A stretch of 62,468 nt of DNA, counting the filler, from Dirinaria sp. TL-2023a (lineage: Eukaryota): NCBI GenBank assembly GCA_051941275.1. It is 8 parts of 8 records of this genome, joined end to end, with 100 filler letters (N's around TTAATTAATTAA, not from the genome) between each part and the next. Parts side by side here need not be neighbours in the genome. Positions count along the whole stretch, not along the records: positions 1 to 7,771 come from JAVEBF010001273.1; 7 more parts are not named here. The stretch is one strand, 5' to 3'. Below, piece after piece: positions 997 through 54,783 of the stretch. A program made the translations under genes and the position numbers. The stretch's first letter is position 1. Every line of letters begins with the position of its first letter. A model generated the notes under the pieces. That model was not told where the DNA came from and did not search any database. It saw only the letters and a program-made list of their open reading frames with translations.

Positions 997-3313
997 CTAG
1001 CATTCCCTTGCCAATCCGACCTCGAGATCATCTCCAATTTGTTGCCGTGAACGTACATTCTGTAGAATGCCCGCTTGTATTTCTTCCACTGTACTATTTA
1101 ATGACGTCGATCCATCCAGGCCTGGAGCGTATAGACGCAATTCTGCGTCTGGCCTGGAATCCCGCCTACGGAACTCTTTAACGAAGAATTGGTACGCCGC
1201 GTTTACATTGGTGCCTCCGAGGAAACGCGGGAATCGGGTATGAATCGGTACGTCGATGATGCGCTGGGGAAAGATGTCGGTTTGGGTGAAGAAGATCGTG
1301 ATCGCGGTATGGCACAAGATGTCCAAGCGCGTCATACGTGAGACGAGCTCGAGACAGGCTTCCATCTGGTTGCGAGATGGCATATCATGGATAAAATCCA
1401 GATCTGCGCAGTAAGAGCACAGGGGTACCACGTAGAATATGTGATCGAGACCGGCTAAGATGCGTGTTATCGGCTGTGACGGTAACGCGGTAATGCTGGT
1501 CATTTCGATAGAGAAATGACCACGACCATCATTCAGCTTGAAAGTAGTCCGGTTCCTACCGCTCATGCAACTAAGCATGTGCAAGACATCCTGATTAGAT
1601 TGAGTGCAATGGCAAAGCAGATCTTCGAGCAGATCCAAGAACCTGCTCTATAGTGAGCATGTGACGATTGCCGGGACGGAGTTTAGAAAAACATACCGGA
1701 CCTCGTCAGCATGAACTCCTGATTTTTGCCGTCGTTGTATCCTGAAAGTCGTAGGGAGCGTAGGGCACTCCCATTCGATAGCTATGCGGATGTCGCGGTC
1801 CTGGCAGAGCTTCTGACACAGCTCAGTCAAGGCCCGGTCACTAGCCAAAGAGGACCCAATTCTGAAAGACTTCACGGTTTGTAGGAGCTGTGGTTTTGCG
1901 CCTCAGTTATTCGCATGAGATTTGGATTTTGCTTCGGCCTCTGTGTAGGTACGTACGTACCTCTCGCGTTTCGCTGTCTACCTGGATCTTATGTTCTTTA
2001 ATAAGCTCTTCCAAATTCAGAAATGTCGTCTGAATATGCTGGAGGATCATTCTGTTCTCGACATTTCGATTGCCATCGCTGCTCCATGACAAGTAAAGCA
2101 GCATCAAGATAGTTGAACTTCCACCGAGATTTGTGCCTGTAACAGTTAGTAATTCAATTGTTGAATCACAGTTCCAAAGGCTCTAATGAGAACGAGCGGA
2201 GTCATGGGAAGTTCTTCCTTGCACTGACCTAGTAAGGCAATCTTGTAGTCTGGTGCTTCACGCACTAGCAAATGGTCAATTAATGAATCCATTCCGGTCA
2301 TTGTCGACGCTGTGTCTTGAAAAAAGAAATCTTTCATGCTTTCATCACGTCCACTGTCGGGAAGCAGGTAATATTGTGGATTCCAGAGATCGCACCAGTA
2401 TATGGGCAGTCGAATGACTGAAATGTTGGAGACGGCGGCGAGACTACATTTCGAGAGATAGGAGTAATTAAGGGACGAAGCTACGGACGAAGAAATTGTA
2501 TTGAGGGAAAACCGACGCCTGTTTCGAGCGTAGACTTGCGACTCGTTTAGGTCACGTTGTAGGCTCTGATCAAAGCCACCGATATTTGACAGTCTATGAA
2601 AGAGAGTAGGCGACTTCTCGATAAGTGGCTCCGTGGATCCGATCGTCGACATCTCGTCAATGGACTCTAGCGGAACCAGTAAGCTCGAGGCTCTGTGGGC
2701 GTTCGAGGCTTCGATTTGCACTTGCATATCAGCAATGCGCAAAGCCAGCTCATTGTTACTTTCCAGGACCCTGTTTACGAGTGCGGCAAGGTTAGACACG
2801 GCACTCTGTGCTTCTTTGACAGAAGAGCTGTTCCGCGTAGTCAGTATTAGACTATCTTGAAAAGCAAGGAGATCAGGTGATCTACCAAGTCAGCGTTGTC
2901 AACATCAGATTTAGAGTGCTCTTCGAGGCTTGCAGGCGGATCAAGATCCCGGCAATGGTTTGCTCTTCCCTTGTCCAGCGTATACGCGCACGTGCAGAAA
3001 ATGATTGGGTCATCTTGAGGGAGTCAATAAACTTCTCAAGTTCAGACATGGTCAAGACGCTGTGAGACAGCGCAACGACAAGCTGTTCAACCATCAAGAG
3101 TTGCATTCTTGATTGATCGGCTTGCTGATCTCCTAATAGAAAAGCTTGGACTTGGCCCATACAGGCACCGAGATCTGCTATCTCTCGTAGGACGCACTGA
3201 GCAGAAGCCGGACATCTTTTTATATTCCTGAAAACGGTTGTTATGGTAGTCGTGACTTTGGCTACTACAGCTAGAATCCCCGTGACCGACGCGATGATAG
3301 AGAGTGGATCCAT
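997..3313 (-). CDS. HeLo-like (fungal STAND N-terminal) domain fused to a degenerate G-protein alpha-like domain, ~679 aa, 5 exons (3313-2886, 2827-2229, 2136-1961, 1887-1697, 1642-997)
   Basis: Five ORF-track pieces join in frame through GT..AG introns (2040 nt = 680 codons). The N-terminus MDPLSIIASVTGILAVVAKV is typical of HeLo-like domains. The C-terminal half follows the G-alpha pattern: KIALLGTNLGGSSTIL, IFYVVPLCSY, NQMEACLEL, ITIFFTQTDIF, FPRFLGGTNVNAAYQFF. Confidence 0.75.
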
Positions 3314-4191: not shown

Positions 4192-6529
4192 CTAGGTATA
4201 GGCCCACGTATTTGACAAATTCCCACTATCTGCCCAAAACGGTTCGAAGCTGTTGAAAGAATCGACTGTGAAAACCAAGCCCATGGAGTCCGCTGATCCA
4301 TCCTGAGTTATCGCAGACGATGTCTCTGGCTGCAGGGTAATGGTATCATCCGTGGCTTGACTCTCGCTTGGATCGAGACCGGCGCCATGATCCTGCACTA
4401 GGTCGCCATTATTGTAGACTGAAAGCGCGTGTGTAGTTGTCAGACCGGTAGTCAGACCGGTACGGAAGCGGTCAATGAGAAGATCAGCTTTAGCGAGGAG
4501 ATTACGCGTCACGTTTGCTGCGCTGGCAGCCATTGCGAAATTCTCTCCGAAGCTTTCGAAAGCGTCGATAGCGCTATTGATAGCTTTGCGTGCCGATGGG
4601 GTCGAAGGGTGGACGGGGTATGCTAGGATGAATCCGATCATTGATAACGTTGCGTTCCATTGCCACTGATACACCTCGTGCCAGCCGCTCATGATATCTG
4701 TCTCCGTGAGTATCTGGTGGATAATGTGAATCATCGCTATGGCATGGTTGACGCAGGATATGGCATTCCTTTCCGCGAGCGGCGTGCTGTGGTTAGATTT
4801 AGGAGAGAAGCAGATGAAAGGTCGATAGAGATTCATAGTAAGGTTGTGATACAGAAGCTCTAGCATAAGCCGTTGCCGTTGGAGCCACACAGGAGCAAAA
4901 GGATCGACCTCTAATGCCGACCTGTCGGTGGAAAAAGATTGACCGGGACCCTTTCTTTTCGTCCTCAAGGCATCTGGAACATCCCGTAACCAGTTCTGAA
5001 GACATCTCATACTTGATAAGAGGAACTCAGCACAACTCTCTAGGGATTCAGAATCATTGTAGAGGCTCTTTCCGCCATTTATGTCAAGAATGTTCGCACA
5101 TTTCTCGAAGAACGCAACGTAGATAGCACGTGCTGCCAAAATCAATTTGGTGTTTTCCAAACCATAAGTGAGCCAAGTTACATCCTCATTAAAGGATGCA
5201 AAATTAGACCCAGAAAGTACAGCCGACTCTTTGTCGGCTCTTGGTAAAGTGCACGTCACCTGGGAGATCTGAGCAGAAAATGGTCTTCCGAGTTTCATGC
5301 AAGTCTTGATCTCAATAGCAAACACAGTCCACCAAATCTGTTTTTGGAACTCCTTTTGGGCCTGAGGAAGACCATCTGCTGGCTCTAAATGAAGACCTAG
5401 GATGTGAGCAGTCCGCACCGCCAAAGCCAGAGCACTGTGAGCCATGTTCTGGAAGGATGCATTGCAAAGGTAGGCAACTGACAAAATCTGGCATTGCAAG
5501 GTCGTGATCGATGGGCTCTCTAGCTCACTCGTCAGCAAGATCTGACATCTACGATAGAACCACCGGCCAGCGATAGTTGCATCATCGCCGTCTACAACGG
5601 CTCTAAGCGCCGCATCTGTATGGCTTCGTGGTAAAAATGCGATTCCATATTGCATACATATGGCGAGAATGATATCGGCGAGTGCTGAAGGTTTTCGAGA
5701 CGTCCCAGATGTCACCCAGAGCGACTTATAGTGTTCTCTAAAACGGGACTCGTCAAGAATTGGCATAGTGCAGTGATAAGATTGCCAAAACAAGCCTAAG
5801 AAATATTCCTCTTGAGATCTAGTTAAGTAATCAGCTTTCAGCGGAATCTCGTCCGACATTAGACTCTCTTCCGAGTCGCCCATCCATAGGCTTGTAGGAC
5901 TAGCAAAAGCTCTGCTCGCGGAGTTAGGGTGCATGAGATGGTCCGAGGGGGCCTGTTGGAACGCTGTGTCAAGATATGAACTCATTCGACCAATGAAGTA
6001 GAATGCAGAAGATGGACCGTAACTTTGGGTTTGACTTGACTGTGCAATACTTGTGTGGATGCCATCCCAGAACCTCCTCCCCGCTCCATGCTCTCTCAAA
6101 GGTTCGAGGTTTGGAGAAAGTAATCCCGCAGACGACGATCGCGGACACGGAGGTGAGGCGACTGATTTCATAGACGCGTGCTTATGAGCCTCAAGTTGCG
6201 TTTCTAACTCTTTAACGCGTGACTTCAGTCTTTCAATTTCCCTGACACCGTGTCAGCCCACACGCGCTTCGTGCCAGAGTATGCACAACGGACCTGATTG
6301 CGTGTGGCAGCGTCCGCACTTGGTTAGGACTCCTGTTGCTGCACTGTGCACCTCGATTTTGACAGTTGTTGCATGGGTAATAGTTATCACACTTGATCCG
6401 GTGTGCACGGCACCAGTCGCAAGCTCTGGCGACTTGACTACGTTTTAGCCGTGCTATAGATTGGGACGTCGTTCCATTCTGTTGCCCTTGATGAACTGAC
6501 TCCGGCATGCTTGCGAAAGTTGCGTACAT
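4192..6529 (-). CDS. Zn(II)2Cys6 fungal transcription factor with fungal-specific TF domain (exons 6529-6294, 6241-4192)
   Basis: ACDWCRAHRIKCDNYYPCNNCQNRGAQC binuclear cluster, coiled coil EIERLKSRVKELE after the intron, and middle homology region (AVRTAHILGLH, IWWTVFAIE..KLGRP). Confidence 0.92.
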
Positions 6530-13429: not shown

Positions 13430-14775
13430 CTAGCAAACCTGGACTGGGTAAACAAAGGGCGGAGCGCCCATTTGTTTCGATACCGGATCCAATGGTAGAC
13501 AATTTCCATAAAAGTTATGCGCTGGTTGGGCGGGCACGTATATAGGTTTGTGATGCTGGCCATGATCCTCGCAGTGTCCAGAGAACGATGCTGTCGAACA
13601 CAAAGAACCAACGGAGTATGAGGATCCATCGTCCGACGGGATGGATCCATTGGATGAGACCGTGTTTTGCGAATGTTGCGCTGACACAAGGTGAAGTGGG
13701 GGAGACGGTGAAGGAGTGTAGGGCGCATTTGAATATTGTTGGAACGAGTTGGCGATATTTTGGACGGTATCCATGAGTGGATCTCCTGGACAACTCCGAT
13801 CCGGAGGGGGCGTTAAGGGAGCGGCGGCGGTACGGGTTGTGAATCGCGGACAACGTACGACAAGATCCTTAAGCTCTGGAATACTTATCCTGCGTCTCGG
13901 ATCACACTCAAAGATTCGCCTTAAAATGGCATCAAGCTCAGGAGATAGTGGCAGGATGGAACTCAAAAACTTGGGATTCCTGAGGTACGCCCGGAATGTG
14001 GAGTCCTCGACAGAAGCCCGTTTCCATGGATTGCGACCACAGGTCAAATTTACCAATATTATTCCGAGGCTCCAGACGTCATTGGGTATCGAAGCGTAGC
14101 AGGTCGAGCTGGAAGAAGTCTGCTGACATTCTGGGGTAGGGTATTAGTCAAATCGTAGAAAGCCTGGAGGTACAGCGAAAACATACCCGGCGACATATAG
14201 AATGTCGATCCGCAGCCGAAATCCGATGTGAAATACTCCCTGGTGGCCAGACCGAAATCGGCAAGTTTGACTGTCAAACCTCCTTCGGCGACGAGGATGT
14301 TTTCGGGCTTCAAATCCCGATGGTATATCCCGAGTGAATGGCAGTAGCTTACCGCATCCAATATTTGAAGAAACGCTCGCTTTGCCATGAAATCATTTCC
14401 AAGATAATGGCCGGCTTCCGTGATGCTGGAAAAGAGATCACCTTCTGGGCAATACTCGAGAACGACGTATGTACAATCGTACGAATCCATGATCGTTAGC
14501 ATCGAGACCACGTTGGGATGCTGGCTGGCTTCATGGTGAAGCTGTATCTCTCTCTGCAAGAATTTTCGCTGCCTCGGATCCAGGCCAATCTTATTCAGGG
14601 CTTTGACTGCGTAGCGGACATGTGTGTGAATGTCGTCAGCGGTGTACACCACTCCGTAAGCTCCAACTCCCAGAATGCCGGTCAGCTCAAGCCGGTTGGC
14701 CAAAATGAGACCCAGTCTATCTTCTGGCGAATATGCTCCAAGTAATGGGGGTGATGGCGGAGGGGTAGGTAACAT
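13430..14775 (-). CDS. ran1: Ran1/Pat1-like (Sks1/Vhs1 family) Ser/Thr protein kinase (exons 14775-14187, 14130-13430)
   Basis: MLPTPPPSP start, [67 protein letters not shown]. Confidence 0.9.
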
Positions 14776-15629
14776 GGCAGTAGACAGGCCCACAGGAGAA
14801 TGGATAGAAAGCTCTGTCCAAGCCAGGCGAGGCACTGCTTTGAATTAATAACTACTTGGTTCTTCGAGCTTCTGTCCCGGTCATCGATCCAATTGTGCGG
14901 CCTCAAGGAGGGCAGAGGCCTAAGTGGCAAGGTCGAGTGTTTCGAGCTGCAGTGGGAATGAGGTGTCGGAGAGGGTCGGCGTGAACAAGAATGGTTCGAC
15001 TGGTGGGATGTATGAGGTGGAGGTTCTAGCTATGAGGCTGATGATATGTGAGGATGATGACTATTGCGTCAAAAGAAAAAAAAAGGAAATGTTAATGAAG
15101 GAACGGAGAGTGGTTGGTAGCGCATGGATGATGGGGTGCATACATAGCCTTGCTGCACGAGGAATAAGTCTGATACGATGAATCACACCCTCTTATTTTC
15201 CCGTTCACAGGGCTACCAACGGCTTAGGGAAGAAGCCAAGGATGTTTGAATATGGCATGAAGCAGTAAGGGAATAACCTAAGGGAACAAGGGGACAGTTT
15301 AGGGAGACCAGGTGGCAGGGGGGACAAGTGGGCAAGTGGGCAAGAGGACTCTTAGCGCCATGACTTGGTGTAAGCGAACAGGCAGGGCAAGGCTATAATT
15401 ACGAAAATGGGGGGTTAAGGCGAAACGGGAACATGGGATGCGCCATTTGTGATTTGTGCCACTTAGGGCGAGACACGACAAAGAGAAGAGAGAGGGAGAG
15501 AAAAAGCCTGCGGCTAAGTGCTCCGCACTACTACCTTTACCTGACGAGGATCTTGCGCAAAGGGGGATAAGAGAGGAGGAGGGGGGGGAAGGGAGAGAAG
15601 GGCTAGTGTGGCAGGGAGACGATGCAGAG

Positions 15630-17261: not shown

Positions 17262-20200
17262 TCAAGCTCCAAAATGCGCATACCCAGCCCATACAAAAGG
17301 CGCCATGCCCGCCTCTCTAGCGCTCTTGGTAGCAGCATGCAGCGCTCTGGCAGACCGCCCGATATCAACAACCCCGTCCTGTCGGCCGACTTTCAACCCG
17401 GCATAAAACGCCTCAGCGATACTGCAAGCCTCTTTATCCAGGATCTCCCACCACGTAGCCACCACGTTCGGCACCCCGGCCATCTGGAAAGCGCCGCAGA
17501 TATGCAGCGCCTCCTCGGCCAACGCGTGGTCGTGGTTGACGGCCGTTTCGCACGCGGACAAGTACGCGAGCTGGCATTTCTCAAGCTCCATCCGCATGAT
17601 GAACCGCACGCTGAGAGGTTTCGGCCGCCAGTCGCTCAGGAGCAGTTTCGATTTCAAAGGGTCGAGCGCATCGGCCTCGCCATGGCAGGCGAGGTGCGCG
17701 ATGGTGCAAGTTCGCAGTCCTTGGATTATGTCCTTTCTCATTGGAGCCGGAGAGGAGAAAGACGATATGGTGTAGTTTGGCGATAGTAGGGTTTTTGCGA
17801 CGGCAATTTCTGTCACGGCGTTTGGTAGCGCGATATGGTCTGGTGTTGTTGGCATGGCGGCCAGGAGCGCTCGTGGGGCTTTGTTAGAAGGCTCTTCCGA
17901 AATTGATAGTTTCTGGATTTCCGCATCTGTATCTTCGGTGCTGAATTCGGGCGTCGCTGGAGTCGCTGCTGAAAGTGCTTTTGAAAACCTGCTCACGGGT
18001 TTTCCTTGGTCAGTCGTAGCTAAATCACCAGCATCAAGACTCTCCGTGGTCGGCATTGCTGTCGTGAGTATCTTTGGTGATTCCGCTCTGCGATCTCGCT
18101 GCACGGGCGCCTTTCCTGTTTCCAGGAGTGAATCGTCAGGTTGAAAATGCGACATTCTAGCCCTTGAATATATTAACGATCTCAATGTTGGGCTGTATGA
18201 GCTTATGGCTCGGTCCATCACCGCACAAGGTACCCCGGTATCCCGTGCTTTACGGTGATCGCCGGCTGCGTGCACGGGCAGCCTATTTGCCCAATCGCAT
18301 AAGATCCACCACACGCGCGGCAGCTCCATGCCTTCTTCCTCAATTTTACTCCCCTGGAGGCCTAATCGGTCCAAAACTGGCTCGGCAACTTGATACCAGA
18401 GCCAACTGAGAACTTGATCAAGCCCGCCGTCGTCTTCGCCAGATGATTGCCACTTCTTGACGGTTGAAGTCAAGTTGCTATATTGTGCTCTGCATGCGTC
18501 TGCAGAGTACCCAATCAACTCTTGACGGTACACTGATCCTTGAGCGACTACCAGAGCAGTCCCATTGGAAGAGCCGATCCCAGAAACAAGCATAATAGTC
18601 GGACCGCTCTGGGAAAGCTTCTCAAATTCCTCATCGCTTATATAAGGCTGCTGGAAATGTTCAAACCCCTTGTTCTTACGAATATCGGATACGACCAATC
18701 TGAGTTGCGACTCCACTCCGAATTTATCTATTGGTTGATTTGTAAAGACTTCGTCATTGCCAGCACTGCTCAACCGCTCGCTCAGCCTTTGATAGCGGTT
18801 TGCGAGCTCTGGGAGTTTTTCTTTCAGCTCCGCGATAGGCGTTCTTTTATTAAGCAGTCGGGTCAAAATTACACTCCTGCCCCGTTCATATACACGAACG
18901 ATGTCGCGCGGCTTTTTCTCCGCGATCTTTGCAGCCCATAGACTTAGATACGAGAAAAGATGGTATTGCCGTAATTGAGAAAGTTGCTGCGACCGAGCAA
19001 TACTCTCAGAAAGGATATCATCCACTAATTCCAATGCCAACGCGAGAGCCTCGTCAAATTGGATCTTAGAAAAGGGATCAGTCGACAGAATCCCCGTCAG
19101 ATCTTTGCTGTTAACTATACGAGCTGCGAGTAGAGCAAACGATGTTGCCGCTTTTAGCTTGGCATGAAGCTCATATTTCGAGTTTGCGAATATTTGATAG
19201 TTCGTTTCTGCGCATCGCATGCCATACTTCGCATCGCCAGTTAACTCAAATAGAGCGTCAAGTAATGTCGCCAGTGGCGGCATATGACCTGTGGACCGCG
19301 TGCCTCGTTCTTTTGAAAGGGTTTCAATTTGATCAAATAACCCAAGAGCGGTCTCCAGATCCTCGACGCGCTTGGGATTTTCCGAGGCTTGACCCCTCCG
19401 CGTCCAAGCTTCTGCAGCGCTTCGTAAAGAATCGATACGTGGGCCGAATTCAGCACACTCAACATTCACTGCGCAAGAATAGTGTTGAAGGACCTTGTCA
19501 ATCTGTGCTGTCAGAGGTTCTGATCTGGGTCGAGTCGAGATCAAATGGCCAAGTTGTAGAATCATTTCTATACGGTCGCTGCGGCGCATCGGCATAGGGC
19601 CCAGAATCATCTCCTGGATCCAGTACTGAGCTTCTATCAAATCTGCTGACTTCTGCGTCTGGTCGACCGAGGCGCTGTTGGCTCGACTTCTTAAAATACC
19701 GGACAACTCGGCTGCCCTCCGGCCGAACGGGTCTTCCCGCCGAGCAGTCAGAAGAACCGACAAACGAAACTGAGAAACAGCGTCCTCTAAAAGTGGTACT
19801 GCGCCGTATTTTTCAAAGCGGCTTCGTTGAATCTCGCCCAGAGTGAATCGAACATCTGCTTCAATATGTTGAACCGGCCATTCTGACTTTCTGGCCTGGA
19901 TCCTATCCAAAGCATCGACAGCGAATGAATGCGCCCTGGTGAGGATGAGTGGGTCATAAATCCAGTGATAGCTCAAACGAAGACTTTTGGCAATTTGATA
20001 AGATGCCGTGATTCGGCTTGCCTGAGGACAAGCACTATTTTTATCGATAGAAGTCAGCATTTCGAAGAAACACCGGCACATGGCAACCATGTCTTCTTGT
20101 TTCTTAAAGGCCTCAAATTTAGCTTGATGGAACTTTCCAAGCGTCTCTTGCTCAAACGGCTTGTGTGATGGCATGACCGCTGGCTTGGTTTGCAGCTCAT

Positions 20201-20900
20201 TAACGAACTTTTCTGCTCTCTCCAAGTCCTGGATATCTTGGCTGATGTGGAATCTTGTCGCGAGGATATTGGCAGACATGAGATGAAATATTGTCGATCT
20301 GTCCTCCTGCACGTCTCGAAACGGACACTCGACCCCCAACAATTCAATAGCAATGTCGAGGTCATCGCTCGAACCATCGTATTCCGCTCGCTCGTAAAGA
20401 GCAATGGCAGTAAACAATAGGAGATCGACGAAGAGACCGTCGTCTTGAGTGACGACCATCCACAGGGAGTTGATGGCATCAAATAAATCATCCAGCGTCT
20501 GATGGTCACCATTCACACCGTAACGACGATGCAGCACGTACATGATACCAGCTTTTGCTTGCAGATTCTCGGGGCTGATCTCAGCAGCTTTTCTATAGCA
20601 ATCGAGAGACTTGTCTACATCCTGCCTTTTCGATAAGCGGAACGCCCTTTGTTCGTGAAAAGAAGCTTTTTGAAGCCACAATTCGCAGATCAAAGTCTTG
20701 CTGACGATTCCTTTGGCCGCATCGGCCAATTGGATAGCCTTTTCGAGGAGTGATAGGGCATGATCCAGCTCAGGTCCTTTCAACCACGAGAGGCACCACT
20801 TTTGGAAAGATTCCGCGGCCTTCTTCTGAACAGCGCGAATTGTTGGCTCGACCAGACTCTCAATGGATTGTTCTACTACTGGCGCTGGACCTGTTGACAT
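17262..20900 (-). CDS. CHAT-domain (caspase-like clan CD) cysteine protease with long N-terminal helical/TPR-like region, 1212 aa, single exon
   Basis: Catalytic motifs AHLACHG (His codon 17682-17684) and LAYLSACETA (Cys codon 17550-17552). Fungal CHAT hallmarks: ERGRSVI, LSWLWYQVAEPVL, LPRVWW, LPVHAAG, ISSYSPTLRSL, EALHICGAFQMAGVPNVVATWW, WAGYAHFGA. Confidence 0.93.
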   Translation of the reverse strand: MSTGPAPVVEQSIESLVEPTIRAVQKKAAESFQKWCLSWLKGPELDHALSLLEKAIQLADAAKGIVSKTLICELWLQKASFHEQRAFRLSKRQDVDKSLDCYRKAAEISPENLQAKAGIMYVLHRRYGVNGDHQTLDDLFDAINSLWMVVTQDDGLFVDLLLFTAIALYERAEYDGSSDDLDIAIELLGVECPFRDVQEDRSTIFHLMSANILATRFHISQDIQDLERAEKFVNELQTKPAVMPSHKPFEQETLGKFHQAKFEAFKKQEDMVAMCRCFFEMLTSIDKNSACPQASRITASYQIAKSLRLSYHWIYDPLILTRAHSFAVDALDRIQARKSEWPVQHIEADVRFTLGEIQRSRFEKYGAVPLLEDAVSQFRLSVLLTARREDPFGRRAAELSGILRSRANSASVDQTQKSADLIEAQYWIQEMILGPMPMRRSDRIEMILQLGHLISTRPRSEPLTAQIDKVLQHYSCAVNVECAEFGPRIDSLRSAAEAWTRRGQASENPKRVEDLETALGLFDQIETLSKERGTRSTGHMPPLATLLDALFELTGDAKYGMRCAETNYQIFANSKYELHAKLKAATSFALLAARIVNSKDLTGILSTDPFSKIQFDEALALALELVDDILSESIARSQQLSQLRQYHLFSYLSLWAAKIAEKKPRDIVRVYERGRSVILTRLLNKRTPIAELKEKLPELANRYQRLSERLSSAGNDEVFTNQPIDKFGVESQLRLVVSDIRKNKGFEHFQQPYISDEEFEKLSQSGPTIMLVSGIGSSNGTALVVAQGSVYRQELIGYSADACRAQYSNLTSTVKKWQSSGEDDGGLDQVLSWLWYQVAEPVLDRLGLQGSKIEEEGMELPRVWWILCDWANRLPVHAAGDHRKARDTGVPCAVMDRAISSYSPTLRSLIYSRARMSHFQPDDSLLETGKAPVQRDRRAESPKILTTAMPTTESLDAGDLATTDQGKPVSRFSKALSAATPATPEFSTEDTDAEIQKLSISEEPSNKAPRALLAAMPTTPDHIALPNAVTEIAVAKTLLSPNYTISSFSSPAPMRKDIIQGLRTCTIAHLACHGEADALDPLKSKLLLSDWRPKPLSVRFIMRMELEKCQLAYLSACETAVNHDHALAEEALHICGAFQMAGVPNVVATWWEILDKEACSIAEAFYAGLKVGRQDGVVDIGRSARALHAATKSAREAGMAPFVWAGYAHFGA

Positions 20901-21506
20901 TGTTGCAAGATTAATACATGTGCGACTCTGACCCGTATCAGGATATGGGACAATTCAAGATTAAGTATATATTCGAATAGGTCGAGTAAAGGCTCCTGAA
21001 CGCCAATAACGAGTTAATGAGAAAGAGATAGGCAAATGGCCAGACACTGAGGCTGGGAGCATCGTGACAAAATCATATCGGATGCGGCGGCTGATTCGTA
21101 CCAGTCCATTGGTGAGGTGAAAAGTACGATTAAACAGTATGCACGATGCTAGTTGGAATATTATATATTACTTATTACAGAGTATAGCGAGACCACCCAG
21201 GCTCGCCAGGTTAGGTTAGCATCTCAAGAAAGAGACATTCGGGGAACGTCGGTGTTGCCAGCGGGCTGCAATACTATTACGTAATACACAGTCCGATGTC
21301 TTGGCACAGCTACATCCATCGGATAAGATAAGATACCTCGGTTCATGGAAAATTGCACTTTCCCTCTACCTACAGGTAAAGTACCTACAGGTATCTTGAG
21401 GTCCTTTTTCAATAGCTGCCTTATTTAAGGTACTTCAGGTATAAGGTACGTACTTCCCAAGGCATTATCACTTTCTAATCGCCACCTGATTTTTCTCCGC
21501 AATTCC

Positions 21507-46995: not shown

Positions 46996-48918
46996 GCTTG
47001 TTGACAGGTGTAGATTGAGGCGGGAGGCGCCGGTTTTGATAGATATGTTCGGGTGTAGGATTGCGCGCCGTATGGGTTCACCTTCAGTCAGTTCGTGATC
47101 CGCCTTTGGTGATGCTGTAGGAGAAGGGCTCGGCGTTGGGAGAGGAGGTGGTTTGTGAGCGTTTTCAGATGCGGCTTGTGATGAGGATTCTTTGGGAGTA
47201 ATAGATCCCTGGGCTGGGACGCAAAGGGTTGTAGTGCTTGGTGCAATGGATGGTGATGTTGCATCAGCTATGTGTTCGACTTTTGGAGGTGGTTCGGATG
47301 AGATTGGGTCCGGCCTCTTCGATTCTAACGATAAAGAATCTTCAAAGCAGATTGGATCATTGGGTATCACTCTTTCAGGCAGCTGCTCCCACTTTAGTAC
47401 AGAAGCGAAGGGTAATTGCTATTCAAAGAACTGGGGGCAGTACCTTGGTGGTGGGAGATAAAGATCTGATCTGGGGGCTCTCGTTTGGGTAGTAAGCCCG
47501 TACTGGCCCCCTATCTAAGGCTACTCCGACCTTGACCTTCAGAATGTCACTGAAATTTCTCAGAAGGACGTCAAAGTCGCGACGACGCATCTCTGGTAGT
47601 AAAATATGCCAGTCTGGTAGAGTCCATTTATGGTAAAGGCGGCCATGAGTCCTAGGAACGTAGTACTGGCCGTGGAGCCTGAAGAAAAGATCGCAAAGAT
47701 AGCATGCACTCTTGCTGGAACAGATTGTCCTTGGTCGTTTCCTCTCCAAATTCAGCTCGTAGAAGAAGAGAAGCTGAATCTCAGCATGCACCTTGACCAA
47801 TCTATGATAATCTGCGGTGGCCTGACGGAACTCCTCAACTATGACTTGGATTGGCTTTCCCAAACATTTCTCTAACAAGGGCTTGAATGATCTCGACTGC
47901 GCAACAGTTCGAGGTCGAAATATGTTTTGAAGAACTGTAAGAGGATGAAGTGCCTGATCTACATTTGAAGGTTGAGAGGGACGTGAGATTGGACATGATT
48001 CAATATTGATGCTCTTGAACATAGGGTACTGCTCGCTTCGAGCGATGCAAACGAGGTCGCAGCAGATCGAATAGTATCGACCGAGCTTTCCCACAGCTTC
48101 AGGGAGGAATGCTTTGAGCTCAGGGTCTAGCGTTTTTGAGGAATTGAGAGCCACTTTAAGCTTCGTACTTGAAGCTAAACTATGCATCTGAGTTATCAAC
48201 TCCATGGCCGCGCCTTGCACTGCGGAAGACGCAGCAGAATGCTCTTGAATGTCTTCAAATTTCAGGAACAAAGCTTTGAGAATCGTTATCTTTGTAAGGA
48301 TATCCGCCAATTCCATAACTGTGATATTCGGACTGGGCTTTATAGATTGGTCTCTGATGGCAGTATCCAACAGCGTAATTAGCACAGACTTGCCCTTGCT
48401 TCGACTAGATTGCTTAGCATGCTTTGATCGTAGCCGGGATAGGATACGGCAATAATCTAAAGTAACTATGCATCGGAAAAGAGCCTTCGTATCGTCATCT
48501 TTACTATTCGCTGGGACATCATCAGTTGACACTATACTTGATCGAATGTAGTGTATGAACCTCTTGAAGCTCCTTGTTCCAAGATCGTTGCCATAAGCTT
48601 GAACCCAAGCACTACCTTATTGACATCACCGTTGTTTGAAGTCAATCGAATCGTACAGCTGCGACCATCACGAGCTTCCTCGAGGCAGACCGCCATGACC
48701 TTAGCCGAGTCATGCGTAGTATCTGACAAGAACGCCAAATTCTCCGAAATCTGCTTTTCATGCTGGAAAGATAGTTGGTATATGCTTGAGAGTACCGAGA
48801 AGTCTTTTGGCTGGTTCTCTTTTGGACATTCGGGATATTCGTTGAGCATGGATAGTAGTGTAATCGCCTCCTTCAAGCTCTTGTGAGGTGTAGTTCTGGA
48901 TATTATGGTGTTCATCAT
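46996..48918 (-). CDS. OTT_1508-like nucleic-acid deaminase (exons 48918-48561, 48510-47444, probably 47382-contig end)
   Basis: VHAEIQLLFFYE..ICSSKSACYLC..F..HG.YYVP.THGRLY.KWTLP (HAE + CxxC Zn deaminase); N-terminal LSFQHEKQISENLAFLS..KVMAVCLEE. Confidence 0.85.
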
Positions 48919-50740: not shown

Positions 50741-53700
50741 TCATCGGTTAGCTTTTTCGTCCAAGGCCATATTATCGAGCGCTGAAGCTGAAATTGCTTC
50801 ATTCTCAGCCTTTGCCATTATTTCTGCATCAGCACATCTTTCACAAGACGAAGGATCGCAGACCCAGTTTAGAAGCCTCAGCGTCTCCTGATCATTAAAT
50901 AGTGTGGCCCAGTACCGAGCCTTCCAATCATTTGGGCCAGCCCGGTGAATGTCGGCTCCGTGGTGTAAGAGAATCTTCACGATACCATGACATTTGAAAA
51001 AGCATGCCCAATACAAGGAGGTTCGTCCTCCCATGTCGGCCTCGTTGATATTGATCCATTTCTCGACAAGCAGCTTGAAAACTGTTTCATGTCCTTTGAG
51101 AACTGCTTGATATGGTGCAGAAACCTTAGGCTGATACGATTGATGATTGAACTCCGGAGGACTAACTGTCCACCCGAACGAGGTCTTTTCGATGATGGGC
51201 ATCGTGTCGATCAGGAGTTGTATGATGTCCTCATACCCTGAAATCGCCACCCAGTTCATTGCCCAACTTTTTGTTATTTGACTTGCAAAAGAAAGAGCGC
51301 CATTTTGTAGTAGACGCACGACTATGGCGCGATTGGGAATTTCTGACTTTCTTAAAGCATCGAGCGGGCTTCCTAGAGTGCCTTTATATTCGACGTTCGC
51401 GCCACTGTTGATTAGAAACTCTACGATTTCAAGATTTCCAGCAAAACACGCTGCATTGATGGCGCTGCCGAAGAAGCCTCCTCTTTGATTGACATTTGCA
51501 CCGTTATGAACGAGTGTCATGACGACAGCAACGTGGGACCTTAGACGCCGCCTGGAGCGCATTTCCAAAAAGCCCTCCCATTTTGTTGGCTTCCACATCT
51601 TTTCTGAGCAAGTACAGGACGATTCCGTCGTTAAGTCCGAGACACGCTGCATAGTAAAGTGCCGAAGGTGATTCAGAAGATAAAATATCCTTTTTGTAAT
51701 CTCTGACCTCTCTGGTCAAGCCACACCATTCGGGTTTGGAGTAAGAAGCCCACAAGTCTGGGTGTCCAAGAATATCGACAATCATCTGCATTGTACCTTC
51801 TGTCATGTGTTCACCGCACTCTTTGGCATGAAAACCCCGGGCACTGGCAGCGTATTGGAAGAGCGGGCTTTCGAAATGTTTTCCTCCATTCGACTGATCG
51901 TGTGGGCCCCATATTTCAGGAGGCGGATCACGCGGGCCCCAGTGTTTCATATAGTGTAAGCAATTGTGGACTATTTGCTCGTGCGCTACAGTATGTAGTA
52001 TTGCAAAGCATGCTGCTGGCCCCTCTGATGCTCGTTTCGAGGTCAGATATTCCTTTACCGAATAGTGAGCGAGATGAACTTCTAGCACCGACCCAACATT
52101 GCCGCTTTGCCACGTCGTTGCGACGAGGCTTGATAAGGTGGTAAGAGGGGTCACTGAATCAAAAAATCTATGACTCGGGCTAAAAGCCGGCTCTGCGGAG
52201 TCATGGATGACCATTGCTTCTGCAAGCTCCCTCAATGAAAGAGGTCGCTTGGAAAAAAGTAGCCACATAAGTGCCGAAAGTGCTTCCTTATGATATGCTT
52301 CGTCAATGCTCAACAGCATCCGATCGTAAGTCTCGTCCAGAGTCCGAGGTAAGGTATGGAGAGTCTGCTTGACTGTACTTGCTCTCAAGCATTTTCTTAA
52401 TGATTCCAGCTGGCAAGACGCCCACCTGAACCTGCCAAGCCTCGCATCAAAACTTCATTTTCAGTCATTGAAGATACACTTACATGCCGTGCGCACCACT
52501 AGTCAGTTTTTGTTCGACCTGATCTTTTACCTCTTGGGGCCAATTGCACAATTTGGGGTCGTTGCATAGCTGCGTTCGAACGTGCAAGAGTATGTCATTG
52601 TCAACGTCGCTGTTTTGGATACTTATAGGCCAAGATGTCACAAGCTTCTCTAGATCGACTAGGTCTAGCTCCTTGCGACTTGTCACGAGCATGTGTAAAT
52701 TGGTCATATCGAAGTGTTTGAAAAACTTGAGCATCGACACAAGCTTGGCGCGTTCGTTGTTGCTAGACGGACATTCGTCAAGGGCATCTAATATAATGTA
52801 AACCTGTTTACATTTAGAAATCATAGCTTCCAATGCTTTAAGCAAACCCTCTCTGGAAGGTTGCTCGTGCTCATGACCCTCATATATACCCAAGACAGCG
52901 TCAGGCACAACAGAATGCTGACGCAGAATCTGAAGCACTAATGACCGGAGCATTGAACTTGTCTTCTGCCTTGCCGCATCCTTGAAGCTGAAATAGTAGT
53001 ATGCGAGATAGTGAAAGTCTCGATGCGAACAAAATTTTGCCGTTTCTTCAACTATTGTTGAGCTGGGACCTGTCAGTCGTGAAGGAAAGTGTAAGCGGTG
53101 CCATACCACAAGACTGTCTTCCCACACCCCGGAATTCCATGAAGCCAGTAGAATGGTCCAGGATTATCTCTCCAAGACCTATAACTATCGCTGCGGATGA
53201 ACCAGTTGCCTGTATCTGGCTCGCGCTGCTGACATGCCCATTTGTGGTAATCTGCTACATGGTCTGAGGTAGAAATCCATTTCTGTACTTTTTCTCTTCG
53301 ACCCCCTAGGGCATGATAGAGCAATTTAGTATGTACGATCAATAGCGTGAATTTTCAGCGGATCTCACCCGTATTAAGGTCTTTTGTGAGAAGAGCAGCG
53401 CTTGAGACAATGTCTCCGATCTCGTTGAAAGCAAGTCTTGTCTCATCCAGCGCGGAAACGACGTTTGCATGACTAGACAAGCCCATCTGCACGCTTTGGT
53501 GGTTGGCTTCCGAGACGTCTCTAGGGAAGTGTGAGTCTTGTATTCAAAATGGGAAAGCACGCATTGACGTACAATTTAAGAACACGTAGGGAAAGGCCTA
53601 GATGGCCCATAAGTTCCAAAGAAACGATCTCCCTCAATTTGGTGATAGTACTCTCTCTGAAAGGGTATTGCAACTGGATTGGAAGCCTGCGCACGGTAGT

Positions 53701-53997
53701 ATCTGTCATTGCTTTACGAGATTTCTCCATCTTCTTTGCCAGTCAATCCAGACCCACTTTGCAGGATTCAAGGTTTTCAAATATCGTTGCAGCTACGTGG
53801 TGATGACCAGATGGTTGTACAATTCTCTTAACCTCATTGAGCGTTCTTTGGAGCCTTTCAATCGCCCCGCATAGATCTCTGACATCTCGCCGAGAATCTT
53901 CCACAGAGTGGTAGAAGTTTAAAATCGTCTTGCACAATGTAATTCCGAAAGATGTGATGTCAATAATAGAGGCAGTGACGGATAGAGGGTCTGCCAT
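50741..53997 (-). pseudogene. Fungal NLR (HeLo-like - NACHT - winged helix - ankyrin) with a premature stop and a frameshift
   Basis: MADPLSVTASII N-terminus, Walker A WLHGIPGCGKTVLC/STIV, Walker B YIILDALDEC, GMFRWASCQL, LPRTLDETY, AHYSVKEYL and ankyrin repeats. In-frame TGA at 53743-53745 and frameshift near 51535-51540. Confidence 0.8.
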
Positions 53998-54646
53998 CCT
54001 GCTGATCTGACTCTATGTGATTTTGAAAGTGAGTATTGCGAATATGAAATAACATTGCTCAAGTCTTATCTACAAGCTCAGCCTGATCACGTGTGGGCGA
54101 GGTTTCTTGATCTAGCGGCACTAGGATCGCTGCAAGGCAAACAACATAACTGAACCGTTGCAGTAATCGGTGAATACTGGTGATGATTATCATTGCTGAT
54201 CAATACAGTAATGCATCTCGGTGGAAATTGACATTTTTGATGACACTGAGGATAGAATTGCCAGGAGGATTTGGCCCCTTAAAATACACATGACCATGCC
54301 AAGGCGCTAGTTATAAGCGACGTTTCCGACACATCTCCATCGACTAAGGTAATTCAATATGAGAATTGAGATGAATGCTGATGGACAATACTGACGATAA
54401 AAGACACCATTTAGCCGAGAGTTACAGAACCCTTCCACGACAATGGAGAATATTCAAGATTCTCAAGTCCAGCAACCGACTTCATCAAACATAAGATAGA
54501 ATGTTTAAAGTCCCTTATCATGGAAAAAAAAGTCCCAAATGAAAACCTCTTGTTCATCCGATACTAAAATCGCAAAGTCACCTTCTACAGAGAGAGAAAA
54601 TTAAAGTCCATACTTTCTATTTCTCTAAACGTTTTCGTACCGCCCA

Positions 54647-54683
<37 letters not shown>

Positions 54684-54783
54684 NNNNNNNNNNNNNNNNN
54701 NNNNNNNNNNNNNNNNNNNNNNNNNNNTTAATTAATTAANNNNNNNNNNNNNNNNNNNNNNNNNNNNNNNNNNNNNNNNNNNN
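54684..54783. other. Artificial contig spacer
   Basis: N44-TTAATTAATTAA-N44. Confidence 0.98.

Follow-up and report, generated by a model that had tools for sequence, protein, structure and literature searches.

Organization of the gene

The window (the whole stretch of Dirinaria sp. DNA that was analysed, 62,468 nucleotides) carries on its minus strand a gene of five exons, coding for a helical head, a linker and a G-alpha-like half (Table 1). That five scattered open reading frames join into a single 679-aa frame had been proposed in a sequence-only reading, and the gene model agreed: the pieces add up to 2037 nt of coding sequence after splicing, and the strings quoted in that reading (MDPLSIIASV.., DLNESQVYAR, SLAAVSNISVIRLPI, WNPQYY, GTNLGGSST and TQTD) were all found. 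A database model of the protein, P0001 (610 aa; 'hypothetical protein, Dirinaria sp.'), is 100% identical, contains the same four GT-AG introns, and begins at the internal Met70, without the first 69 residues of the 679-aa protein. The start MDPLS.. adopted here agrees with the family consensus, and the five exons were found to be colinear in four metagenome loci, with conserved intron positions. The junction across intron 1 (..LTTLT-C-SSVKEA..) is identical in P0001 and in the intact orthologue L002. For intron 4, three in-frame donor/acceptor options lie one residue apart, and the one listed was chosen because it is used by P0001 and matches the L002 junction. Intron 2 splits the opening Gly codon of the P-loop. 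The predicted five-exon gene is real, and selection maintains it in this lichen-forming ascomycete.

Table 1. Positions of the gene, its exons and introns, the linker motifs and the equivalents of the G-boxes in the window
Feature	Position	Strand	Remarks
Whole gene	997..3313	-	ATG 3313-3311, stop TAG 999-997; 5 exons, 679 aa
Exon 1	2886..3313	-	aa 1-142 plus 2 nt; HeLo-like/PF17111-family bundle (weak from the protein's own score)
Intron 1	2828..2885	-	58 nt, GTAGAT..CAG, phase 2
Exon 2	2229..2827	-	aa 143-343; long helix, linker, start of G-alpha (beta-1, ..DYKIALL)
Linker motif 1	2524..2574	-	FDQSLQRDLNESQVYAR; family consensus F-E-x-D-L-x-x-S-R-V-Y-x-R
Linker motif 2	2368..2448	-	CSLAAVSNISVIRLPIYWCDLWNPQYY; consensus L-S-L-A-x-V-S-N-I-S-x-x-x-L-P-I..D-L-x-N..Y
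Intron 2	2137..2228	-	92 nt, GTCAGT..CAG, phase 1; position supported by P0001 and L002
Exon 3	1961..2136	-	P-loop, alpha-1, start of helical domain
G1/P-loop equivalent	2111..2136	-	G-TNLGGSST versus GxxxxGK[ST]T in relatives; Lys to Ser
Intron 3	1888..1960	-	73 nt, GTACGT..CAG, phase 0; position supported by P0001 and L002
Exon 4	1697..1887	-	Helical-domain portion of the G-alpha fold; moderate-to-low model confidence
Intron 4	1643..1696	-	54 nt, GTATGT..CAG, phase 2
Exon 5	1000..1642	-	Ras-like core of G-alpha, switch I to alpha-5; pLDDT 80-97
Switch-I equivalent	1540..1590	-	DVLHMLSCMSGRNRTTF; by alignment to P0148
G3 equivalent	1489..1506	-	EMTSIT versus D-V-G-G-x in relatives
G4 equivalent	1276..1287	-	TQTD, relatives having [NT]KxD; Gln in place of Lys, Asp unchanged
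G5 equivalent	1111..1128	-	APGLDG versus T-C-x-T-D in canonical-type P0148

The C-terminal half is a G-alpha homologue

P0001 matched the Pfam G-alpha profile PF00503 with an E-value of 3.8e-17 and 62.9 bits, above the cut-off of 48.8, over its residues 267-559 and over positions 21-303 of the 333 in the profile. No NACHT/NB-ARC domain, C-terminal repeats or kinase domain were detected by Pfam either in P0001, for which G-alpha was the sole match at E <= 1, or in scans of the exons. Exon 5 alone was recognized as G-alpha (E 7.8e-12), and exons 2, 3 and 4, each scanned alone, gave no Pfam match except a chance-level one to Rv2632c-like (E 0.054). All 60 matches listed by phmmer against PDB were chains of G-alpha or constructs engineered from it (5.6e-6 at best). 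The 50 matches listed by Foldseek were likewise all G-alpha, with about 340 aligned columns, TM of 0.53-0.56 normalised to the target, and Gαi3 as the best (E 3.3e-13). Word-index homologue searches with the G-alpha half and with the family alignment returned only the protein itself. In the AF2 model, a Ras-like core (pLDDT 80-97) holds an inserted helical domain, and the beta-1/P-loop/alpha-1 geometry was predicted at pLDDT of about 78-88. The G-alpha fold, on which the sequence-only reading had staked its proposal, was thus recovered by both profile and structure search, and the homology of the C-terminal half to G-alpha, with Ras-like core and helical domain, is genuine.

Alteration of the G-boxes

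Changes of the G-boxes had also been read from the sequence, and the alignment bore them out, with other residues in place of the P-loop Lys, of DxxGQ, of the NKxD Lys and of TCAT. GK[ST] was kept in 14 aligned relatives; the P-loop variant GTNLGGNST was found in P0076, P0108 and P0114, and also in L001/L002. When aligned to the canonical-type P0148, switch I of the window protein has Leu at the position of the catalytic Arg and Ser at that of the Mg-Thr, and at G3 the positions of Asp, Gly and the catalytic Gln are all exchanged. The replacing residues are invariant within the clade, as T-S-x-T at G3, FTQxDIFPQR in the neighbourhood of G4 and A-P-G-L-x-G at G5, this invariance being that of a 7-row exon-5 alignment of four lineages. 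In the wider family of lichen-fungus proteins with the same architecture, GK[ST] is mostly kept, and neither the catalytic Arg nor the catalytic Gln is present. Judging from the residues exchanged, nucleotide binding has probably been lost in the window protein. The Ser-Thr of the P-loop, the Asp of G4 and the Ser at the Mg position are kept, and therefore some non-canonical nucleotide binding may be possible.

The N-terminal head and the linker

The AF2 model of the head (pLDDT 79.7, pTM 0.71) contains helices at 3-29, 36-59, 75-98, 107-115 and 117-141, that is, four long helices and, between the third and the fourth, a short one, the layout that PMC9815663 gives for HeLo-likes and MLKL. The first helix is hydrophobic, with a Kyte-Doolittle 19-residue mean of 1.9 at aa 6-24. 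Exon 1 alone was compared with PF17111 (Helo_like_N, now PigL_N; a HeLo-like family) and gave E 0.014 and 15.2 bits, under the cut-off of 27.2; the domain runs on into exon 2. In the homologue alignment A2, made up of the query and 79 homologues, PF17111 was matched at E <= 1e-3 by 55 of 80 rows; the query row gave no match. The window also codes for an NLR at 53997, the head of which was identified as PF17111 at 1.4e-6, and BLASTP aligned the two heads over 31 residues with 29% identity (pairwise E 0.001). The HeLo-like N-terminus claimed from the sequence was supported as a four-helix bundle of the PF17111 family; by its own score the protein is assigned only weakly, and the assignment is carried by its homologues.

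Superposition of the head model on MLKL (4btf) gave Z 11.0, rmsd 2.6 and 17% identity with 100 aligned, a Z within the range (below about 13) where bundle likeness can be generic, and the N-terminal domain of MLKL (6ux8) gave Z 10.3, also below that mark. Unrelated bundles reached Z 11-12 against the head model, and IncA and tubulin-complex proteins scored as high as MLKL. The likeness to MLKL is not decisive, because helical bundles can reach about 13 through common arrangement. No match at E <= 1e-3 was obtained for the N-terminal model by Foldseek against PDB (best IncA, 6e-2), and the profile of the N-terminal module (hereafter N-module) found nothing significant among PDB sequences, including no MLKL or HET-s sequence. 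The best hit of the latter search, the influenza M2 transmembrane peptide (E 0.062), was treated as a chance likeness of a hydrophobic helix.

A long helix was predicted by AF2 at about aa 146-186 (helix 77-117 of P0001), within exon 2. The linker is of low confidence in the model, with pLDDT <50 over 119-160, 176-212 and 230-262 of P0001. A linker between the two halves had been expected from the sequence and was indeed marked by two motifs, whose columns are 50-90% conserved across homologues irrespective of the C-terminal domain. Complex prediction for the exon-1 head with the G-alpha half gave a score of 0.28 for a mark of 0.34, which speaks neither for nor against docking.

Phylogeny and selection

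The clade with altered G-boxes was monophyletic (100/100), with a long stem of 1.36 changes per column and short tips. The G-box variants are conserved throughout this clade, which lies within a larger family that mostly keeps GK[ST]. P0010, in which the P-loop Lys is replaced by Met, was placed as sister of P0013 and P0018 (100/100), both of which keep the Lys, and its Lys loss is independent of that in the window clade. P0067 (Lys to Ile) was placed elsewhere on the tree, with weak support (80/82).

Comparison with the intact L002 gave dN/dS of 0.22 over 671 codons (NG86), a value only approximate because dS is about 1.0, near saturation; the values for exons 1 to 5 were 0.18, 0.29, 0.08, 0.18 and 0.23. 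The gene is under purifying selection, and such a ratio against an intact orthologue indicates no decay; the value near 1 that the sequence-only reading had named as the sign of a pseudogene was not observed. A close relative in other samples, L003/L004, is a pseudogene with two in-frame stops and a frameshift in the P-loop region, and therefore the family seems dispensable in some backgrounds.

Other fusions of the N-module

The combination of the window protein is recurrent: in at least 21 of the 139 homologues scanned, the N-module or linker and G-alpha are present in one predicted protein. In other Pezizomycotina the N-module is fused to Cdc24/RhoGEF, RhoGAP, PAK-CRIB, Ras, LIM and SH3. 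Among 133 scanned matches, its partners were CDC24 (13), PH_10 (10), RhoGEF (8), RhoGAP (4), PBD (4), LIM (3), Ras (2), SH3 (2) and Spa2-SHD (1), and the same head was also found among homologue matches on NLR-like (AAA_16/TPR) and HET-domain proteins. The N-module is thus a promiscuous head, recurrent in several fusions. The named members found are all annotated as 'hypothetical protein'.

A literature search for HeLo-like or Helo_like_N domains together with G-alpha, RhoGEF or RhoGAP found no paper linking them, and no G-alpha-derived pseudo-GTPase fused to a HeLo-like head was found in the literature searched. The words 'G-alpha', 'GTPase' and 'PF00503' do not occur in the main text of PMC9815663, the supplementary tables of which concern NLRs. 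The architecture of a HeLo-like head with a dead G-alpha is thus undescribed in the literature found, and it resembles a switch or bait that is built into the protein. The comparative genomics paper of Anantharaman et al. (2011, Gene) on G-alpha architectures may include fungal G-alpha fusions.

Discussion

At about an even chance, we propose that the window protein is a pseudo-GTPase sensor or regulator that restrains a membrane-targeting head, with a logic like that of MLKL. The G-alpha domain would be a pseudo-GTPase in which guanine nucleotide cycling has been lost, and it would act as a protein-binding regulatory or sensor domain. The window clade has gone beyond the wider family, with the P-loop Lys, the switch II DxxG, the NKxD Lys and TCAT swapped for conserved residues. 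In the resting state the N-terminal bundle might be held back by the G-alpha domain, with the long helix and linker as a brace; a change of partner or a modification would then free the bundle, which might move to the membrane. A role as decoy or sensor, as cell-death effector or as 'non-NLR immune switch', as suggested from the sequence, is an inference, and so are autoinhibition, membrane targeting and any cell-death or immune outcome. We know of no record of cell killing by PF17111 domains of this subfamily.

With the HeLo-like heads of fungal NLRs and HELLP-type proteins the window protein shares the N-terminal position, the MDPLS.. start and the four-helix bundle with a short helix. Unlike those proteins, it is without NACHT/NB-ARC and without a C-terminal amyloid motif, a conserved linker and G-alpha come after its head, and its own Pfam score is below the cut-off. 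An NLR was ruled out, the protein being without the NTPase domain. MLKL, the executioner of necroptosis, likewise joins a four-helix bundle, by way of a helical brace or linker, to a dead nucleotide-binding fold, but this is an analogy of architecture only: the dead enzyme is here a G-alpha instead of a pseudokinase, and a sequence relation was not detected with the N-module profile in PDB. Canonical fungal G-alpha proteins (PF00503) have the homologous fold with Ras-like and helical domains, whereas the window protein has altered G1, G3, G4 and G5, has no catalytic Arg or Gln, and carries a module of about 335 residues in place of the N-terminal helix region for lipidation and G-beta-gamma.

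Pseudo-GTPases without nucleotide binding are a recognised class in the pseudoenzyme literature, and the window protein resembles them in that a GTPase fold is kept under selection and residues for nucleotide contact are lost. To our knowledge, those described are mostly small-GTPase-like domains. Plant XLG1-3 set a precedent: they carry an extra N-terminal region before a domain derived from G-alpha, the G-boxes of which are degenerate, they need no nucleotide for their action, and they have a part in defence signalling (PMC8584482). Their N-terminal region is unrelated and without a four-helix bundle, however, and the fungal case is of independent origin.

The strongest competing explanation, still clearly less probable than the restrained head, is a non-lethal, membrane-tethered scaffold, in which the head is only an anchor to membrane or cortex and the dead G-alpha sequesters or positions partners from the heterotrimeric G-protein pathway (G-beta-gamma, RGS or a receptor) with no cycling of nucleotide, in the manner of plant XLGs, and with no role in death or immunity. 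The N-module heads paralogue-like copies of domains of the polarity and pheromone pathways, as suits a localisation module, and simple anchoring at the membrane would account for the polarity-domain fusions just as well. The binding of XLGs to G-beta-gamma and RGS does not depend on nucleotide (PMC8584482), and the indecisive likeness of the head to MLKL leaves room for an anchor. Against the scaffold, PF17111 heads fungal NLRs and amyloid-controlled pore-forming proteins (PMC9815663), and the same head is carried by the NLR-like and HET-domain proteins and by the NLR of the window.

We regard as rather unlikely a bolder proposal, by which the window gene would belong to an NLR-independent guard system throughout Pezizomycotina, with the N-module and its conserved linker motif as a HeLo/MLKL-like executioner head. 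Its baits would be copies of G-protein, Cdc42 and Ras polarity-pathway components (G-alpha, Cdc24, RhoGAP, PAK-CRIB, Ras, LIM and SH3), and the lichen G-alpha would have become a pure decoy after losing nucleotide binding. Once the bait was attacked, or a hijacked partner engaged it, the head would be set free and the hyphal compartment killed or sealed. Polarity-pathway G-proteins, Cdc42 and Ras are typical targets of microbial toxins.

More doubtful again is a working nucleotide switch, in which GTP or another nucleotide, held through non-canonical contacts by the Ser-Ser-Thr of the P-loop and the Asp of G4, regulates the head. Such contacts are conceivable from the confident prediction of beta-1/P-loop/alpha-1, from the conserved P-loop Gly and Ser-Thr, G4 Asp and Ser at the Mg-Thr position, and from the GK[ST] of most of the wider family; yet in four of the five G-boxes the changes fall on residues contacting phosphate, Mg or base (P-loop Lys, DxxG, NKxD Lys and TCAT), and in P-loop NTPases the removal of just this Lys is usually enough to abolish binding. 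A decaying pseudogene, or an artefact of the gene model fusing two genes, is hardly credible in spite of the broken L003/L004 relative and the database model that starts 69 residues later: the pseudogene was ruled out by dN/dS (0.08-0.29 per exon) and by the five conserved open exons with GT-AG introns at conserved positions, the replaced motifs are invariant across lineages, the MDPLS.. start is conserved, and two separate genes were ruled out by the homologues that hold both parts in one protein.

As far as we know, regulated cell death in fungi has so far been ascribed to NLRs or to HeLo, HeLo-like or gasdermin proteins that are short and under amyloid control. To these two routes, the direct union of a HeLo-like head with a dead G-alpha would add a third, parallel to the bundle-plus-pseudoenzyme design of MLKL and to the integrated decoys of plants. 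The protein also provides, after the plant XLGs, a second and independent case of a G-alpha kept under selection with its nucleotide-binding residues lost. As the family forms a gradient from GK[ST]-keeping to fully degenerate members, with at least two independent losses of the Lys, the transition from switch to pseudoenzyme is directly testable within it.

Gene structure and selection

The gene encodes, as one selectively maintained fusion, a HeLo-like head joined by a conserved linker to a G-alpha fold that has lost the residues for canonical nucleotide binding. The coordinates 997–3313, proposed from sequence, were exact: the frame runs on the minus strand from ATG at 3313–3311 through five exons to TAG at 999–997, and encodes 679 aa. 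All four introns (58, 92, 73 and 54 nt) are of GT..AG type, with fungal-type donors (GTAGAT, GTCAGT, GTACGT and GTATGT) and branch-like CTGAC/CTAAC elements. For intron 4, three in-frame donor/acceptor combinations give products differing by one residue; GTATGT(1696)..CAG(1643) was taken because both the database protein and the orthologue at metagenome locus L002 read X-F-L at the junction. The database protein P0001 ('MAG: hypothetical protein [Dirinaria sp.]', 610 aa) is 100% identical to the window translation and has identical introns, but its model starts at the internal Met70 and therefore lacks the first 69 residues, namely, head helices 1 and 2 (window 3107–3313, minus strand). The HeLo-like domain is hidden in public annotation because of this omission. 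The window ATG agrees exactly with the family consensus start, MDPLS...

By metagenome scan, four loci were found with five colinear exons and the same intron positions. L001 and L002 carry an intact orthologue (61–77% identity per exon). Against L002, dN/dS was 0.22 (Nei-Gojobori, 671 codons), which is approximate because dS, about 1.0, is near saturation; exons 1 to 5 gave 0.18, 0.29, 0.08, 0.18 and 0.23, far below 1 in the head half and the G-alpha half alike. L003 and L004 (2314–4636 in each) carry a pseudogenised copy, disrupted by one stop each in exons 2 and 5 and by a shift of 1 nt near the P-loop. This copy is a mosaic relative to L002 (2313–4636): exons 1–2 are nearly identical (dS 0.02–0.04, dN/dS about 0.95) whereas exons 3–5 are far more divergent (dS 0.25–0.70), a pattern suggestive of gene conversion, or of recombination, among paralogues or strains.

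The genes around it are of ordinary fungal types, and none shows an apparent connection with it. The CHAT domain of one neighbour is a further domain type known from fungal NLR-like and death-related proteins. The NLR, about 50 kb away, has a head that only distantly resembles that of the window protein (31 residues aligned at 29% identity). Unknown bases (X in translation) follow a poly-T tract at about 54700–54731, and a long poly-A/T tract lies at about 470–520; both are assembly or low-complexity features.

Exons of the fusion gene and neighbouring features in the window
Feature	Position	Strand	Remarks
Exon 1	3313-2886	minus	
Exon 2	2827-2229	minus	
Exon 3	2136-1961	minus	
Exon 4	1887-1697	minus	
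Exon 5	1642-1000	minus	
Fungal_trans regulator	4192-6252		
Kinase	13430-14844		
CHAT-domain (caspase-like) protein	17262-20954	minus	1230-aa open frame, CHAT at its end, E 1.7e-29
MFS transporter			
OTT_1508-like deaminase	47423-48616	minus	open frame, E 2.2e-21
Not3 homologue			
Fungal NLR	50741-54012	minus	PF17111 head E 1.4e-6, NPHP3_N/NACHT P-loop region, ankyrin repeats; several exon-sized frames

The head and the linker

The assignment of the N-terminus as HeLo-like held at the level of the family, and was not reached by the protein's own exon 1, which matched PF17111 (PigL_N, formerly Helo_like_N) weakly (E 0.014; 15.2 bits, cut-off 27.2). PF17111 is equated with 'HeLo-like' in PMC9815663. 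HMMER scan with P0001 over 1.84 billion representatives yielded 750 proteins at E <= 1e-3, and the majority of the 150 matches listed align through P0001 residues 3–230 (positions 72–300 of full-length proteins). In an alignment of query exon 1 with 79 matches, PF17111 was detected at E <= 1e-3 in 55 of the 80 rows (best 1e-12), the query row itself giving no match. From this alignment, AF2 predicted (pLDDT 79.7, pTM 0.71) four long helices at 3–29, 36–59, 75–98 and 117–141, with a short helix (107–115) between helices 3 and 4; the same layout is described for HeLo-likes and MLKL in PMC9815663. On this evidence we accept the head as a family-level member of the HeLo-likes.

Foldseek of the head model against structures gave no match at E <= 1e-3. 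By a second, independent aligner, MLKL 4btf ranked fourth (Z 11.0, rmsd 2.6, 100 aligned, 17% identity), at a Z that can be generic for helical bundles (below about 13), and the MLKL N-terminal domain 6ux8 ranked eighth (Z 10.3); unrelated bundles (IncA, tubulin-complex proteins) scored 11–12, and plant CC and CC-R domains 8.3–8.9. An MLKL-like fold relation is consistent with the model but unproven. Helix 1 is hydrophobic (Kyte-Doolittle 19-residue mean 1.9). Its consensus MDPLSVAASI.GLL.. (profile positions 3–28) found influenza M2 transmembrane peptide as the best PDB sequence matches, at non-significant E of 0.06–0.6; the likeness is probably due to chance; it does underline the transmembrane-helix character of this helix.

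After the bundle, AF2 placed a long helix and then a low-confidence stretch holding two motifs, F-E-x-D-L-x-x-S-R-V-Y-x-R and L-S-L-A-x-V-S-N-I-S-x-x-x-L-P-I..D-L-x-N..Y, both conserved throughout the N-module family irrespective of the downstream domain. The strings marked as 'linker' in the sequence-only reading proved to be these motifs. Our guess is that they serve as brace, docking or autoinhibitory peptide.

The G-alpha half

The C-terminal half was found to have a G-alpha fold, as had been proposed. P0001 scored 62.9 bits with the Pfam G-alpha profile, above its curated cut-off of 48.8 (E 3.8e-17), residues 267–559 covering profile positions 21–303 of 333, and exon 5 by itself scored 45.4 bits. 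Phmmer detected 154 PDB sequences at E <= 1, the best 60 of which were all G-alpha chains or engineered constructs (top, Go, 5.6e-6). In the AF2 model (43-row alignment; mean pLDDT 69.5), confidence was 80–97 in the Ras-like core, moderate in the helical domain and low at 370–410. The best 50 Foldseek matches listed were all G-alpha structures, headed by Gαi3 (E 3.3e-13), with alignments of about 340 columns and TM 0.53–0.56 (target-normalised).

Alignment with relatives and with the canonical-type G-alpha P0148 (617 bits to Pfam, same search) confirmed the altered G-boxes. GxxxxGK[ST]T of G1 reads G-TNLGGSST (Lys to Ser); Arg and Thr of switch I are replaced by Leu and Ser; D-V-G-G-x of G3 reads EMTSIT, losing Asp, Gly and the Gln position; [NT]KxD of G4 reads TQTD, Lys being lost and Asp retained; and T-C-x-T-D of G5 in P0148 is replaced by APGLDG. 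GTNLGGNST is shared by three independent fragments (P0076, P0108 and P0114) and by L001/L002, and SGR.RTT.K, TS.T, H.FYVVPLCSYC, NQME, FTQ.DIFPQR..DVP and APGL.G are invariant in all seven rows of the exon-5 alignment (four lineages, 50–62% identity). Because the variants recur and are invariant across lineages, the changes are not random damage. Maximum-likelihood analysis of 19 rows covering the Ras-like region recovered the window clade as monophyletic (100/100); its stem is long (1.36 changes per column) and its tips are short (0.1–0.5), which is the pattern left when a burst of change gives way to constraint. GK[ST] is retained in 14 aligned members of the wider family, and the catalytic Arg and Gln are absent from nearly all of this family. 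The Lys to Met loss in P0010 is independent, as its sister lineage, formed by P0013 and P0018 (100/100), keeps Lys; P0067 (Lys to Ile) lies elsewhere, its placement weakly supported (80/82) on an unresolved backbone.

Partner domains and proposed function

Pfam scan covered 139 of the 150 listed matches (threshold 1e-3 or 1e-4 by batch), 11 short fragments being left out. G-alpha was present in 22, including the canonical-type P0148, which matched through its G-alpha half only. For other domains behind the same type of head, 133 scanned matches gave CDC24 (13), PH_10 (10), RhoGEF (8), RhoGAP, PBD/CRIB and ubiquitin-like (4 each), LIM (3), Ras and SH3 (2 each) and Spa2-SHD (1). Ankyrin repeats, DUF676 and beta-lactamase occurred in one match each, and one HET-domain protein and one NLR-like AAA_16/TPR protein were also included. 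Head and linker motifs together were found in P0035, P0061, P0056, P0085, P0123, P0144, P0145, P0012 and P0073, with RhoGAP, Cdc24-RhoGEF-PH, PAK-type CRIB, Ras, LIM, SH3, Spa2-SHD or ubiquitin-like partners. The partners form a strikingly coherent set, namely, the G-protein, Cdc42 and Ras polarity/pheromone-response pathway. Named G-alpha-type members are from lichen-forming Lecanoromycetes only (Physcia, Lecanora, Polycauliona, Calogaya, Xylographa and Gallowayella), and those with other partners from Sordariomycetes, Leotiomycetes, Dothideomycetes and Orbiliomycetes. Automatic domain-based UniRef labels aside, their annotations read hypothetical, uncharacterised or unnamed throughout. Neither of the two domains is new, nor is the notion of a pseudo-GTPase; our literature search, incomplete for older work, found no paper on the head/G-alpha architecture or on the signalling-domain fusion series.

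An even chance is given to the following model. The G-alpha domain, no longer cycling nucleotide, would bind a protein partner as sensor or regulator and hold the head back until a change of partner releases it to the membrane. The design would be that of MLKL, but with a pseudo-GTPase in place of the pseudokinase. Modelled as a complex, the head and the G-alpha half scored 0.28 (mark 0.34), a value that weighs neither for nor against docking. Plant XLGs retain G-alpha function although nucleotide cycling is given up (PMC8584482). A less probable alternative is that the protein is a membrane scaffold that assembles G-protein partners and has no lethal role. That the G-alpha domain still functions as a non-canonical nucleotide switch seems unlikely; Asp of G4 is kept and Lys of G1 and G4 is lost. 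A pseudogene or mis-joined model is very improbable: although disabled copies do occur at L003/L004, the ratio against the intact orthologue is well away from the value near 1 of a decaying pseudogene. In the boldest reading, a rather improbable one, such proteins would be executioner-bait fusions forming a guard system independent of NLRs.
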